64,000 nucleotides of DNA from a phage: the sequence record PZ445524.1, one strand, 5' to 3'. Below are positions 12,949 to 38,923 of this stretch, in pieces (positions within the stretch are counted from its first letter, which is position 1; each line of letters begins with the position of its first letter). A program made the translations under genes and the position numbers. A model generated the notes under the pieces. That model was given only the letters and a program-made list of their open reading frames with translations. It did no database searches and was not told the DNA's origin.

Positions 12949-13014
12949 TTATCCTCGTTTGGTTTCGGGAATATTATACTCCAATAATCATAAAGCTAAA
13001 GGCCCGAAGGCCTT

Positions 13015-29628: not shown

Positions 29629-29991
29629 TTAAAAGAATTTAAATTTTTTCTTTGACCTTTTATTAAATGCATCTTGTAGTTGCATTGTAATACATTTTTC
29701 TACATGAGGAGCTAACTCAGCTTTTCTTTCTTGGTCAAGAACAGCAAAGTCCATTACAACCTTTCCATCAACCCAATCCAGTTTAGTTACATACACTATA
29801 TGTGTAGAACCATCTTCTAGTTTAATGACAATCTCCTGGATAACATTTTCCATAGCGGATTTAATTATCTTAAGAGACTCATTAAAAAGACGTTCTTTTC
29901 TTTCTTCTTCCCCCTCCGAAGAGGGGGATTCATCGATAATTTCTAGATCTAAATCTAAATCATCTTTATTCATTAAATTCTTCCATATCAC
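29629..29991 (-). CDS. 40: gp40 head vertex assembly chaperone (positional)
   Basis: 120 aa ORF between uvsX and 41, as gene 40 in T4. Confidence 0.6.
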   Translation of the reverse strand: MIWKNLMNKDDLDLDLEIIDESPSSEGEEERKERLFNESLKIIKSAMENVIQEIVIKLEDGSTHIVYVTKLDWVDGKVVMDFAVLDQERKAELAPHVEKCITMQLQDAFNKRSKKKFKFF

Positions 29992-34253: not shown

Positions 34254-36950
34254 TCAGCCAAACAGGAAGTCTAACGAAGCTTTTTCTTCATAGTCCATGC
34301 CAGCCGATTCACACATACCCGCAAGCGGTTTAACAAACGATTTTTGGAACAAAGTTGAGTGGTCAATCCAAGATAGTACATCAGAACGAATTTCTTTTGG
34401 AAGTTCTGTACCCGATGGCCAAGCAATGCACTTGTCACCAAATGGATTTCCTTCACGTAATGGAAGAACCATTACCTTATTTCCATCCAAAATTGGAGCT
34501 ACACCCAGACCACTAACAGCTCGACGATAAGTTAGCACACCGCGAATATGGAACGGGCATTTAAATCCTGGCCAACCTTTATCATCATATTTCGCTATAT
34601 CGTTCGCAGTTTTTACTTCAGCAATAACTTTATAGTCAAGTTGACGATATTCTTTCTCGAAGTTCTTGTAGTATTCTTGGACAGACTCTTCACCTTCCTG
34701 AAGAATACGACGAATACTTTCTTCGAGAGCTTCTTGCACTGCTTTTGGTGTTGAACTCTGCTGAGTTTCCATACCCATGATTTTTAGATGCGGTTCAGCA
34801 AATCGTTTATCTTCCATATCATAAACGTTCAGAGCATAACGCTTTTTCGCTTTCCAAAATCCACCAACACCCTTTGAACCAAGTGGAGGGCAAGAAATAG
34901 CTTCACGGTCCATATGCATCAGATGCTCGCGGTTATTCATATAATCACATAACTCACGATATGCAACATCAATCATAGGTTCCATCTTTTTCTTACCGAA
35001 CTGATTCATAAATTCAACCAAATCGTTCTGCTCTTTGAATCGGTCAAGACCTACTTTTTCAATAACTTTATCTACACAAACATATACAGAATCAGTATCA
35101 CCTGCTGCAATGAAATCTTCGCCATTAGTTCCGCATACTTTATTCAGATATTCATTAATTTTACGAGCAATCCACTGAATACCGACTTGACCAAAAATTG
35201 TGATAGCAGTAGCATTTCGCAAATCATAGTAACGGAAATGAATATTACCAAGAGCACCATAAAGACTGTTAATGAGAATTTTACGGTTTAGCTGATTTGT
35301 ATTAGCAAGTGTAGCCGCTTTTTCACATTCTTCAATCAGACTATTGAGAACAGATTCGGTGTAATTCGATAGTTCATTTAAGAAATCATCACTGAACTTA
35401 ACATATCGTTCAACTTCTGGTTTAGTTGAACAAGACCCTGCGCCTTTCATAATAATCTTTTTAATAGCTTCGGCATTCATTTCTTCAGCGAACATTTTCT
35501 TTTTCCAATCTTTACGCTGGAAAAATACTTTAGCGATTTCCTTTGGAATGATACCTTCTTGATGCTTATCATACATCCATCCATTCGGAGAACAAGAATA
35601 TTCATCACTCGGTTTAGGAGCTGTTCCTGCGATATATTCATGAATTGGATGAACTTTAAACTGACCACGAATAGTCTCAGGACTAATGTTAACCTGACGA
35701 ATAATGCTCGGATACAGAGACGTCAAGTCAAAACTCATAATATATCGACGAGCAATTGGTTTAGGTTCAAATACAAATGCACCCGGAAAACTTTGTTTAA
35801 CGTGCGAACCTTGCTGAGGAATAACCTTATGTTCACCTTTCAATGAGTTAAAAATAATAGCATCCCAAGTTTTAATAGGACTCATTACGCCAGAAAAAGG
35901 CATTTTAGCGTAATAAGACATACTTAAAACTAGATCGATAAACCCGCGAATTTTATCGATTGCTTGAACTGATTCTACGTCAATGATGTTATAACTAATG
36001 TATCGTTGATGATTAGTCTCACGAAGTTTATTAATAGGACCGTCGTATGGTAATTTACCTTTTTTGGTTTCATGCTGAGCAACTGATTCCAAAGAGAATG
36101 ACGGCAAATTAGTAAAAGCGAATTTCTTGTACAAATCTAAATAATCAAGAATAGATACGCCATCAATAGAATAAATTTCTTTGCTACCGTACATATTTTG
36201 AATTAGTTTAGATTTTACCCGACCGATTGGAGAGAAGCGTTTCATACTGCGTTCACCCAGAATCATTTTAACGCGATTCATGATATACGGAACGTCAAAT
36301 CCCTCAATATTCCAACCAGTAAAAATAGCAGGTCGTTTCTGTTCCCAGAGATTGATATATTCCATGAGCATATCACGCTCATTATCGAATGGCATATAAA
36401 TTACTCGGTCAAGAATTTCTTGAGGAACTTCATCACCACCTTCACAGTCAAGCTTAGCAGCTAACTTTGCATCCCATTTTGATACTGAACCATACATTGA
36501 ATTCAAAAGGTCGAAAACATAAAAACGGTCATCAATTGAATCGTAATGAGTGATAGCATCAATTTCATATTCAGCTTTCATTGGGTCAGGAAATTTATCA
36601 CCAGTAACCTCAATGTCACAGTTAGCTACACGAACAAATTTTCGGTCATAAACAATTTCTGAACCATACGTATCACTGATATAAGCGAGTTTAAAATCGT
36701 TCATACCGAGAGCTTCGAGACCGATGTCTTCCATTCGCTTCATCCAATCTCGAGCATCTTTCATTGATGGAAATTTTTGAGGAGCGCAATTTTTACCATA
36801 GATGTCTTTGTACTTTGACTCTTCCTTACAATGCCTAAACATAGTCGGAAGATATTCTACTTCACGAGTACGTTCCTTTCCGTTTTCATCAATATAACGT
36901 TCAACAATGTTATTTCCGACTGTTTCAATAGAGATATAAAATTCTTTCAT
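34254..36950 (-). CDS. 43: DNA polymerase (family B) with 3'-5' exonuclease
   Basis: 898 aa; sequence recognised as T4-type gp43; exo motifs and DTDS polymerase motif. Confidence 0.98.
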   Translation of the reverse strand: MKEFYISIETVGNNIVERYIDENGKERTREVEYLPTMFRHCKEESKYKDIYGKNCAPQKFPSMKDARDWMKRMEDIGLEALGMNDFKLAYISDTYGSEIVYDRKFVRVANCDIEVTGDKFPDPMKAEYEIDAITHYDSIDDRFYVFDLLNSMYGSVSKWDAKLAAKLDCEGGDEVPQEILDRVIYMPFDNERDMLMEYINLWEQKRPAIFTGWNIEGFDVPYIMNRVKMILGERSMKRFSPIGRVKSKLIQNMYGSKEIYSIDGVSILDYLDLYKKFAFTNLPSFSLESVAQHETKKGKLPYDGPINKLRETNHQRYISYNIIDVESVQAIDKIRGFIDLVLSMSYYAKMPFSGVMSPIKTWDAIIFNSLKGEHKVIPQQGSHVKQSFPGAFVFEPKPIARRYIMSFDLTSLYPSIIRQVNISPETIRGQFKVHPIHEYIAGTAPKPSDEYSCSPNGWMYDKHQEGIIPKEIAKVFFQRKDWKKKMFAEEMNAEAIKKIIMKGAGSCSTKPEVERYVKFSDDFLNELSNYTESVLNSLIEECEKAATLANTNQLNRKILINSLYGALGNIHFRYYDLRNATAITIFGQVGIQWIARKINEYLNKVCGTNGEDFIAAGDTDSVYVCVDKVIEKVGLDRFKEQNDLVEFMNQFGKKKMEPMIDVAYRELCDYMNNREHLMHMDREAISCPPLGSKGVGGFWKAKKRYALNVYDMEDKRFAEPHLKIMGMETQQSSTPKAVQEALEESIRRILQEGEESVQEYYKNFEKEYRQLDYKVIAEVKTANDIAKYDDKGWPGFKCPFHIRGVLTYRRAVSGLGVAPILDGNKVMVLPLREGNPFGDKCIAWPSGTELPKEIRSDVLSWIDHSTLFQKSFVKPLAGMCESAGMDYEEKASLDFLFG

Positions 36951-36986
36951 AGATATTCCTTAGTTTATAGCCCGAGTTATTAGGCT
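36951..36986 (-). promoter_or_regulatory. gene 43 translational operator (hairpin + SD region bound by gp43)
   Basis: RNA AGCCU-AAUAACUC-GGGCU (5-bp stem, 8-nt loop) at 36986-36969, followed by AUAAACUAAGGAAUAUCU-AUG. Confidence 0.7.
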
Positions 36987-37010
36987 CTTGATATATTATA
37001 CTCCAAATAA

Positions 37011-37024
37011 GGGGCCGAAGCCCC
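37011..37024 (-). promoter_or_regulatory. GGGGC-UUCG-GCCCC tetraloop hairpin between regA and 43
   Basis: perfect stem with UUCG loop on minus-strand RNA, right after regA stop. Confidence 0.6.
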
Positions 37025-37028
37025 TTGC

Positions 37029-37397
37029 TTAATTACCAATCGTATATTTAGGAACGAGTTTCCATTCATGTTTTTGTTTAAAAGAAATAACTCGGAAGTT
37101 ATTAGTTAAATCTTTCATAAAAGTTCTTTGACCAGGAACGATTTCAATCAGTCCCCAATCTTCTAACAGCCATGCAATCGAATCACGACGAACTTCATCT
37201 TCTTCTGTCATTTCAACTTGGCGACCATCCATACGAAGCATTTCTTTAAAATGAACGATATAGTATAGTCCTTTTTTCTGAAGAATATGACAGGACTGAT
37301 ACAGAACTTTATCTTTATTATTAGCAATTCCCATACGAGTCAAAGTTTCTTTTACTTTCAGAAAATCTTCAGGTTTTTTAAGAGTAATTTCAATCAT
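37029..37397 (-). CDS. regA: RegA translational repressor
   Basis: 122 aa, T4 RegA length; position 62-regA-43. Confidence 0.9.
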   Translation of the reverse strand: MIEITLKKPEDFLKVKETLTRMGIANNKDKVLYQSCHILQKKGLYYIVHFKEMLRMDGRQVEMTEEDEVRRDSIAWLLEDWGLIEIVPGQRTFMKDLTNNFRVISFKQKHEWKLVPKYTIGN

Positions 37398-37398
37398 T

Positions 37399-37962
37399 TT
37401 ACCATTCCAATGCTAGTTTTTTGAGTTGTTTCTGTTCTTTTACGTTCTTAGTCACTTCTTTCAAAAAATCATCCGTGACTAAACCTTTTAGTTCTTTTAA
37501 TACTAAAGGAAGTTTTCCATTTTTAGTAAGAATTGATTTATAGTTAATTGCATCATTTGTATTAACTTGATACCGCTTAGCAAGTAACTTAATAATCAAT
37601 ACTTCGGTGGAATCTTCAACCAGTTTTGCCCATTTACCATATCTTTTACCACGAGGAACTGCAGCCATTAGATAATTAAAATGAGCTTCATCACTTAAGC
37701 CTGATCCAATTAAATTCATAGCATATACAGCTGGCATGCACTCTGGAAATTGTGATAATGCATTCTCAACCATGAATTTTGAATAATCTTTTTGAGCAAT
37801 AGAACATTTAGTTTTATTATTGATAGCTCCAATTATTTCAAAAAATTCATTTTCAGCTTTTTCTTTAAAAGAATCAGCAGCGGATTGGACAGCTGTCCAA
37901 TCTTTTGAATACCAAGCAACTTGATGCTCGTTTAATTGAATATCATCTTCAAATAAGCTCAT
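37399..37962 (-). CDS. 62: clamp loader small subunit
   Basis: 187 aa from MSLFEDD; downstream of 44. Confidence 0.9.
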
Positions 37963-37963
37963 A

Positions 37964-38923
37964 TCACTTCCACTGCATTTCACATGCTAATTGAATGAAA
38001 AGATAAGCTAGATGCAATTCAGTATTAGCTGCAATACCATGATACTGATTATTTTCGCCGACAATTTCGTACATACGAATAATACTTTGTGGAGTTACAC
38101 GTGAATAGATTTCTTCGGCAAGTTTACCCACGAACCACGAATAATCAGCTGCATATTTTGGTGCTAAAGCTCTGAGTTGTTTAACATCTTTATTTTTGAG
38201 AGACTCAAGAACATCATCAATAGCACCACGATCGTTAGTAACCAGTGATAAAATACCAGCATCCAAAACACCTTTAGATGAATAACTATCGAGCTCGCCA
38301 ATAGTTTTACGAAAATCAGGAAAATTCTTTTTAACCAAAGCTGCTACAACTTTCATATCAGCTATAGCAATTCCTTCATGCTTACAGATTTCAGTCAATC
38401 GACGAATCATCTGCTTCATCATTTCAATTTTATCTTCATCGGTCGGTTGACCGAATGTAATAACTCGACAGCGTGACTGAAGTGGTTTAATAATACCATC
38501 AATATTGTTAGCAGTAATAATAATACTACAGTTTGAACTATAAGCTTCCATAAAGGAACGAAGATGTCGCTGAGACTCTGCTAACCCTGAGCGGTCAAAT
38601 TCATCAATAACGATTACTTTTTGACGACCATCAAATGAAGCGGCGCTGGCAAAATTAGTCAAAGGACCGCGAACGAAATCAATTTTACAGTCTGATCCAT
38701 TTACAAACATCATATCAGCATTTACATCATGACACAATGCTTTTGCTACAGTTGTTTTACCTGTTCCTGGAGAAGGAGAATGAAGAATAATATGTGGAAT
38801 CTTACCTTTACTTGTAATAGATTTAAAGGTTTCTTTATCAAAGGCGGGAAGAATACATTCATCGATAGTAGATGGACGATATTTCTGTTCAAGAATGTGT
38901 TCTTTTTCATTTACGGTAATCAT
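37964..38923 (-). CDS. 44: clamp loader ATPase subunit (AAA+)
   Basis: 319 aa from [15 protein letters not shown]; Walker A GTGKTT. Confidence 0.95.

Follow-up and report, generated by a model that had tools for sequence, protein, structure and literature searches.

The sequence immediately upstream of the DNA polymerase gene in this phage genome is very probably the published T4-type autogenous translational operator of gene 43. The entire regA-43 intergenic region (36930-37050, 121 bp) is 100% identical to T4 records, 897 of the 898 residues of gp43 are those of T4 gp43 and all 122 residues of RegA are those of T4 RegA, and it is on these three identities that the assignment is based. The window, by which we mean the whole stretch of DNA that was analysed (64,000 nucleotides, record PZ445524.1), is ~97.4% identical to T4 across 14 kb and at most 97.8% identical to any record, and by this measure the genome is a Tequatrovirus near T4 and not T4 itself.

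Both the operator and the CUUCGG hairpin next to it are already known, textbook elements. Because the operator is identical to T4 base for base and lies beside one of the classic, ultra-stable UUCG hairpins of T4, the finding, though correct, is an ordinary one. In RNA biology the gene 43 operator has classic status, both as an early case of a replication enzyme that represses translation of its own mRNA and as the element targeted in the first SELEX experiment, that of Tuerk and Gold (PMC6566374). Its intact presence in a T4 relative adds no new biology, and it anchors the annotation of regA, P43 and gene 43 in the window.

Identity and layout of the gene 43 operator

The T4-type records matched at 100% are M10160 (the original regA/g43 sequence), HM137666, KJ477684 and the NC_000866-type records, and of the 503 phage records that match across the same interval, 455 do so at 99% identity or higher. 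The Pfam domains of gp43 are DNA_pol_B and DNA_pol_B_exo1, while RegA matches PF01818 with E = 1e-74. The sole amino-acid change relative to T4 gp43 is G610 instead of D610 (codon 35122-35124, minus strand). The features of the junction, with the evidence for each in brackets, are as follows:

37029-37397, minus strand: regA, translational repressor of other early mRNAs, 122 aa (ORF, PF01818, T4 identity)
37009-37026, minus strand: AAGGGGC-UUCG-GCCCCUU, C(UUCG)G tetraloop on a 7-bp stem, then AUUUGG (fold, covariation, RNAalifold)
37001-37004, minus strand: GGAG between the two hairpins, candidate RegB site in read-through RNA or promoter spacer (12 of 19 leaders; partial consensus)
36995-37000, minus strand: TATAAT, -10 element of P43 (mapped start, PMC2988021; near-invariant in 19 leaders)
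36948-36990, minus strand: probable gene 43 operator in its entirety, from the P43 mRNA 5' end through hairpin, tract and Shine-Dalgarno to the AUG (T4 identity, PMC3014915, PMC2988021)
36969-36986, minus strand: operator hairpin AGCCU-AAUAACUC-GGGCU, 18 nt, 5-bp stem (sequence, fold, covariation, RNAalifold)
36986-36982, minus strand: operator 5' arm, AGCCU (sequence)
36981-36974, minus strand: operator loop AAUAACUC, 8 nt (sequence)
36973-36969, minus strand: operator 3' arm, GGGCU (sequence)
36968-36951, minus strand: unpaired A/U-rich tract AUAAACUAAGGAAUAUCU (sequence)
36957-36961, minus strand: Shine-Dalgarno AAGGA, 6 nt 5' of the AUG (sequence; unpaired in the centroid; conserved in leaders)
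36950-36948, minus strand: gene 43 AUG (sequence)
34254-36950, minus strand: gene 43, family-B DNA polymerase, 898 aa, at once the regulated gene and the repressor protein (ORF, T4 identity, Pfam)

A preliminary description had pointed to the span 36951-37024, which runs from the first G of GGGGC through the last base ahead of the gene 43 AUG, and had proposed an AGCCU/GGGCU hairpin ahead of the polymerase start, followed by a single-stranded tract and the AUG. The hairpin is present as described on the minus strand at 36986-36969, and the tract (36968-36951) and the start codon follow in the proposed order. Relative to the AUG (+1), the hairpin occupies -36 to -19 and the Shine-Dalgarno sequence -11 to -7; the stem pairs are A-U, G-C, C-G, C-G and a closing U.G.

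According to the literature, gp43 is an autoregulatory translational repressor whose RNA operator consists of a hairpin 5' of the start codon and a stretch of RNA overlapping the ribosome binding site (PMC3014915). The hairpin-loop measures 18 bases in T4 and 16 in RB69; the UAAC loop sequence was also predominant among the RNAs selected in the first SELEX experiment, and for gp43 binding the loop's 3' AC (AA in RB49) matters especially (PMC3014915). Some T4-related polymerases are without autoregulation (PMC3014915). The element in the window has the 18-base hairpin-loop, the UAAC loop core and the sequence overlapping the ribosome binding site, so that the match to the T4 operator architecture claimed by the preliminary description stands, and its reading as the gene 43 translational operator is supported by the T4 identity, the cognate gp43, RegA upstream and the published account. 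An Rfam search of 36000-38000 with a permissive E-value gave no family for either hairpin, only chance matches under the gathering scores, and a literature search with the loop AAUAACUC returned only unrelated siRNA and miRNA papers.

The start of the middle promoter P43 has been placed at T4 position 29933 (PMC2988021 Table 1). With the T4 gene 43 ATG at 29893, this start lies at -40, which corresponds to ~36990 in the window, five bases 3' of TATAAT and four ahead of the operator stem; the spacer between TATAAT and the stem is AUAUCAAG (minus strand). The P43 mRNA therefore lacks the UUCG hairpin and carries the operator hairpin at its 5' end.

The mechanism that we propose follows the T4 and RB69 literature. 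RNA started by P43 (TATAAT, 37000-36995) at ~36990 would open 4 bases ahead of the 18-nt hairpin, on the 3' side of which ~18 unpaired bases with the Shine-Dalgarno sequence, and then the AUG, would follow. Free gp43, that is, gp43 not on primer-template DNA, would bind the hairpin loop and the adjoining single strand. The bound protein would cover the ribosome binding site and block 30S initiation, and polymerase synthesis would therefore be tied to the quantity of unoccupied polymerase. DNA-engaged polymerase is unavailable for RNA binding, so gene 43 translation follows polymerase demand. Our analysis covers sequence identity, the cognate protein and conservation of the structure; gp43 binding and translational repression at this operator are expected from the literature on T4, whose RNA is identical, and on RB69. 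The T4 operator was reportedly studied by Andrake and Karam, by Tuerk and Gold in 1990 as a SELEX target and by Pavlov and Karam in 1994, and the RB69 operator by Wang, Pavlov and Karam in 1997 and by Petrov and Karam in 2002.

Folding and conservation of the operator hairpin

Folding of the 96-nt leader with RNAfold placed both hairpins in the centroid structure and left the Shine-Dalgarno tract unpaired, so that the two hairpins of the preliminary description are both predicted. A long-range GGAG/CUAU pairing appeared in the MFE structure only and was rejected, being absent from the centroid and from the consensus fold. The operator hairpin has a free energy of -5.2 kcal/mol (z = -2.1), and 8 of 200 shuffles fold equally well; for the UUCG hairpin the values are -12.9 kcal/mol and z = -2.6, with none of 200 shuffles equally stable, and for the complete leader z = -1.0. 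Thermodynamics alone is weak evidence here, the stability of the operator hairpin being ordinary in comparison with shuffles. That this hairpin is more than chance follows from its identity to T4 and from covariation in relatives, and not from its energy.

The comparative set was anchored on RegA and comprised 80 IMG/VR loci, with the RB69 and RB49 leaders read directly; 41 of the 80 loci and two T4 records contain regA together with a gp43 N-terminus sharing 53-100% identity with that of the window. In the 100 nt 5' of gene 43 a near-universal Tevenvirinae-type layout was seen, in which a GC-rich tetraloop hairpin, a U-run and (GGAG)TATAAT are followed by a 2-25 nt spacer, a 4-5-bp stem with an 8-nt loop, the Shine-Dalgarno sequence and the AUG. 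Three leaders depart from it: that of RB49 is described further below, that of Acj61 (L042) has no operator-like hairpin, and that of locus L043 has AGAC-AAUAACUG-GUCU abutting its Shine-Dalgarno sequence, the UUCG hairpin being absent.

For the operator, the alignment was anchored by the loop motif only and the stems were unselected, which yielded 17 distinct gap-free 22-mers. Within these, 85.9% of the stem cells are paired and 25 double-sided changes fall on 4 of the 5 pairs; the outermost pair is present only in the 5-bp class, RB69-type hairpins having 4 bp. None of 500 shuffles reaches the covariation score, which is 0.79 at slide 0 and at most 0.19 in any slid register. The loop, on the other hand, is nearly fixed as AAUNACUC. 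Its positions 1-3 and 5-7 are invariant across the 17 operators (AAU-N-ACUC), position 4 is A, U or C, and position 8 is C in all but one, which has G. The loop keeps this constancy in phages that share only 57-84% identity with the window in the N-terminus of gp43. A fixed loop on a covarying stem is the pattern expected of a loop that is recognised by a protein. The CAAC core, the major SELEX variant that was asked about in the earlier literature (PMC3014915), occurs in none of the 17 distinct natural operators.

An unconstrained RNAalifold run, for which 19 whole leaders were aligned with plain MAFFT, returned exactly two helices, the operator and the UUCG hairpin, with 9 of the 11 consensus pairs compensatory. 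AAGGA or AGGA is conserved in the aligned leaders. The operator hairpin is thus kept among the relatives, with a covarying stem and a near-fixed loop, and the relatives provide a compact picture of natural mutagenesis in line with the biochemistry, with a stem that covaries freely and a loop that is fixed except at position 4.

Could the hairpin be a mere 5'-terminal stabilising structure, or a chance stem, that no protein recognises? We give this reading almost no weight, since a hairpin only 4 nt from the mRNA 5' end and of modest free energy, matched by 8 of 200 shuffles, might suit it, but a purely structural element would not be expected to combine a freely covarying stem with an 8-nt loop in which 6 positions never vary, and experiments have shown that gp43 binds the identical RNA (PMC3014915, PMC6566374). 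The sole other match to an operator-like hairpin in the window, a 4-bp stem around AATTACTC within regA (37393-37378), was judged to be chance.

The UUCG hairpin and the promoter P43

The preliminary description had also placed a separate GGGGC-UUCG-GCCCC hairpin just upstream, after regA. This hairpin is indeed found there, its core spanning 37024-37011 on the minus strand, 2 nt past the regA stop codon (UAA, 37031-37029, minus strand). Two A-U pairs extend the stem to 7 bp, the UUCG loop is closed by C-G on a Watson-Crick stem, and the order on the minus strand is hairpin, AUUU, GGAG, UAUAAU. Its adjacency to the operator, as originally described, is true of the DNA; it does not extend to the promoter-proximal gene 43 mRNA, which with a P43 start at -40 leaves the UUCG hairpin outside. 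The UUCG stem exists in 23 distinct versions with 31 double-sided changes, a result reached by none of 500 shuffles; 99.4% of its cells are paired, a percentage that is inflated by an alignment in which the best stem was chosen for each sequence, and the RNAalifold run is the fairer test.

The hairpin stands directly 3' of whichever ORF comes last before gene 43, which in T4 is regA. Some Tequatroviruses (L006:1868-2092, L008 and many other records, for example RB51 'RB32ORF047c') have an insert of ~220-250 bp between regA and the hairpin. It encodes an ORF of ~70 aa whose start overlaps the regA stop (TAATATG) and whose stop recreates TAA-GCA-GGGGC, and the hairpin, P43 and the operator therefore stay attached to gene 43. 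The window is without this insert.

Hairpins of this kind are frequent in the window. On both strands together there are 17 hairpins with a UUCG loop and a stem of 5 bp or more, compared to 3.3 +/- 1.6 in shuffles, and the 14 strong C(UUCG)G hairpins (stems of 5-10 bp) are all on the early/middle mRNA strand:

63399-63382, minus strand: strong C(UUCG)G hairpin
60003-59984, minus strand: the same
47322-47307, minus strand: the same
44955-44936, minus strand: the same
43684-43665, minus strand: the same
38975-38954, minus strand: the same
37026-37009, minus strand: the same, the hairpin after regA
29928-29909, minus strand: the same
23624-23603, minus strand: the same
13015-12998, minus strand: the same
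10485-10462, minus strand: the same
6693-6674, minus strand: the same
6460-6445, minus strand: the same
3792-3777, minus strand: the same

Tuerk et al. reportedly described the extra-stable C(UUCG)G hairpins of T4 intercistronic regions in 1988. The extra-stable C(UUCG)G hairpin was discovered in T4 mRNA (PMC4371310). Plus-strand readings of the region were rejected: the hairpin would there have the loop CGAA, strong hairpins of the UUCG class are absent from that strand, and a 50-aa ORF at 36831-36983 (plus strand) is a mechanical, unsupported ORF antisense to the gene 43 start.

What might the UUCG hairpin do? It follows the stop codon of the last ORF, it belongs to the UUCG hairpin class and it has a U-rich tail that is conserved in relatives, and for these reasons we somewhat favour the reading that it acts as an intrinsic terminator of partial effect and/or as a hairpin that protects the 3' ends of the 45-44-62-regA transcripts. 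Counted after the 5-bp GC core, the tail is UUAUUUGG, with 5 U in 8; after the full 7-bp stem it is AUUUGGAG, with only 3 U. A simple terminator pattern scan called no terminator at the hairpin, and we found neither a published T4 RNA-end mapping (Term-seq, cappable-seq) nor a text that maps a 3' end at this hairpin. The UUCG hairpin would be present only in read-through RNA, from P45 and early promoters, as an element separate from the operator. In such RNA it would terminate part of the upstream transcription and/or keep exonucleases from attacking the upstream mRNA at its 3' end. In the DNA, these bases would fill the upstream activator region of P43, a terminator and a promoter being overlaid.

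This overlap raises the alternative that the UUCG hairpin is mainly a DNA promoter element, its loop and flanks (GGGGCTTCG) being the MotA box of P43 and the RNA hairpin a by-product. The MotA-dependent middle promoters listed in PMC2988021 include P43, which starts at -40, and in published RNA-seq the region that includes gene 43 is strongly MotA-dependent. In P43 the hairpin DNA extends from about -20 to -37, over the promoter's upstream half, and lies 8 bp from the -10 element. A promoter pattern scan did not call P43, which has no -35 element, as is expected of a middle promoter. The consensus of the MotA box is (a/t)(a/t)(a/t)TGCTTtA at 12 +/- 1 bp from the -10 element, and MotA tolerates deviations. 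The best candidate is GGCTTCG, formed by the UUCG loop and its flanks: its GCTTC contains the CTT centre of the box, and it agrees with TGCTTtA at 4 of 7 positions, or at 5 with the permitted t/c variant. In RB69 the string is ACTTCG and its spacer, at 13 bp, falls in the consensus range, and a second site in the window (47322) repeats the compressed layout of P43 as GGCTTCG-15-TAAAAT. At P43 itself, however, the spacer to TATAAT is 15 bp and lies outside that range, and GGCTTCG is a weak candidate for a MotA box. Moreover, a DNA site that binds protein needs no base pairing, yet the UUCG stem carries 31 compensatory changes. The stem is retained, but the CTT core is not, in relatives whose loop is UACG, GAAA or UUAC, and lineages such as the CC31-like phages, which have a separate TGCTAT(C) box 12 bp from TATAAT, still keep the hairpin farther upstream. 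Since the stem is kept where the CTT core is lost, base pairing is the primary constraint, which implies a role in RNA, with a role in DNA as a possible addition. The two roles are compatible and not mutually exclusive; that the DNA role is the main one we consider unlikely, although its probability is not negligible.

A further alternative concerns the GGAG at 37004-37001, which could be a RegB site. Cleavage of read-through RNA there would separate the gene 43 mRNA from the upstream cistrons, would explain the stimulation of gp43 by RegB, and would leave an upstream fragment ending in the exonuclease-resistant UUCG hairpin. RegB is known to cut intergenic GGAG, and processing by RegB was reported to stimulate gp43 synthesis (PMC3014915). 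The GGAG is unpaired in the centroid fold and recurs in 12 of 19 leaders, and GGAGUAUAAUA matches the consensus of strong RegB sites, GG*AGRAYARAA, in GGAG and in 5 of the 7 following positions. However, not every intergenic GGAG is cut and most middle transcripts are RegB-resistant; several lineages have GUAG, GGGG or UGGG in place of GGAG; the A/U-rich sequence 3' of GGAG is already accounted for by the TATAAT box; and GGAGTATAAT also occurs at another promoter, near 12980. We found no published text that maps a RegB cut at this GGAG. On this evidence cleavage by RegB at the junction seems quite improbable. GGAG stands directly 5' of TATAAT both at P43 and at the promoter after the 13015 hairpin (12985-12982 region), with ttGGAGTATAATAT in both, and may be either a RegB site or a preferred promoter spacer.

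It is very improbable that the UUCG hairpin is itself part of the gp43 operator and aids polymerase binding. The two hairpins are only 22 nt apart (36987-37008 between them), they are co-conserved in most T4-like phages, and read-through transcripts with the UUCG hairpin also encode gp43. Nevertheless, the UUCG hairpin is upstream of the mapped P43 start and missing from the promoter-proximal mRNA, and the operator has been described as a single hairpin plus the region of the ribosome binding site (PMC3014915). The spacing between the hairpins ranges from ~16 to 49 nt among relatives, the operator-type hairpin of L043 and the different hairpin of RB49 both occur without a UUCG hairpin, and no protein is known to bind CUUCGG loops (PMC4371310).

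The terminator or 3'-end-protecting reading of the UUCG hairpin can be combined with a role of the same DNA in P43. Several CUUCGG hairpins in the window directly precede a MotA-type promoter, in which AGCTTTA or TGCTTTA is followed after 12 bp by TATAAT or TAAAAT. The sites with a hairpin and then a middle promoter are:

43684-43630, minus strand: hairpin 43684-43665, then AGCTTTA-12-TATAAT, which corresponds to the published T4 P47 start (36576 + 7057 = 43633)
44955-44905, minus strand: hairpin, then middle promoter
13015-12965, minus strand: hairpin, then middle promoter
47322-47290, minus strand: hairpin, then middle promoter in the compressed layout

Such a combination of a hairpin with a middle promoter after it has the look of a recurrent module. 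We tentatively hypothesize that the regA-43 junction is a compressed, dual-use version, in which the 18 bp of the hairpin serve in RNA as terminator or 3'-end protector and in DNA as the element of P43 that contacts MotA, possibly with RegB cleavage at the adjacent conserved GGAG before 3'-end protection; on balance we think this doubtful. If it were true, two selective constraints would together hold the near-universal UUCG (CTTC) loop in place, and the hairpin-then-middle-promoter arrangement would be a general building block of T4-type early and middle regions, with four or five sites in the window.

Comparison with known systems

The comparison with the T4 and RB69 operators bears out the likeness to the T4 operator drawn in the preliminary description. 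With T4, the sequence, the position, the 5-bp stem, the AAUAACUC loop, the Shine-Dalgarno sequence and the AUG are all the same, and the element is without any difference in a genome that is itself ~97.4% identical and encodes a gp43 with G610 for D610. RB69 has the same order as the window, namely UUCG hairpin, GGAGTATAAT, spacer, a hairpin with the identical AAUAACUC loop, Shine-Dalgarno sequence and AUG. Its operator, AGAC-AAUAACUC-GUCU, is a 16-nt hairpin whose 4-bp stem covaries with the T4 stem; compared to T4, 11 more nt separate the hairpin from the -10 element and the hairpin is nearer to the Shine-Dalgarno sequence. In RB49 the gene 43 leader (L087:4461-4565, minus strand) has a full sigma-70 promoter, TTGACA-17-TATAAT, annotated as 'hypothetical early promoter'. 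It is without the UUCG hairpin and contains a small hairpin, CUUUC-GUAAAU-GAAGG, with a UAAA loop and a 3' arm that is part of the Shine-Dalgarno sequence. The RB49 leader is a different solution to the same regulatory problem. As read here, the RB69 and RB49 leaders both agree with the published account (PMC3014915).

The UUCG hairpin shares its loop, the C-G closure, the GC-rich stem and the intercistronic position on the mRNA strand with the C(UUCG)G hairpins of T4 intercistronic regions. Unlike that class, it is packed 8 bp from the next -10 element, and the DNA of its loop lies at the site expected for a MotA box. It also resembles an intrinsic terminator with a downstream promoter in having a GC-rich hairpin and U-rich sequence after a stop codon and before the next promoter, an arrangement that is reported, as terminator-promoter coupling, to be widespread in bacteria. 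Compared to intrinsic terminators, however, the U tract is short and interrupted (UUAUUUGG) and was not called by the pattern scan, and termination here is putative.

The leader of T4 gene 32 likewise serves a replication protein that, once in excess over its DNA ligand, represses the translation of its own mRNA (PMC3014915). In gene 32 this works through a pseudoknot and the cooperative coating of single-stranded RNA, whereas in gene 43 the element is a simple hairpin whose loop is sequence-specific, and for the gene 43 operator there is no evidence for a pseudoknot (PMC3014915).
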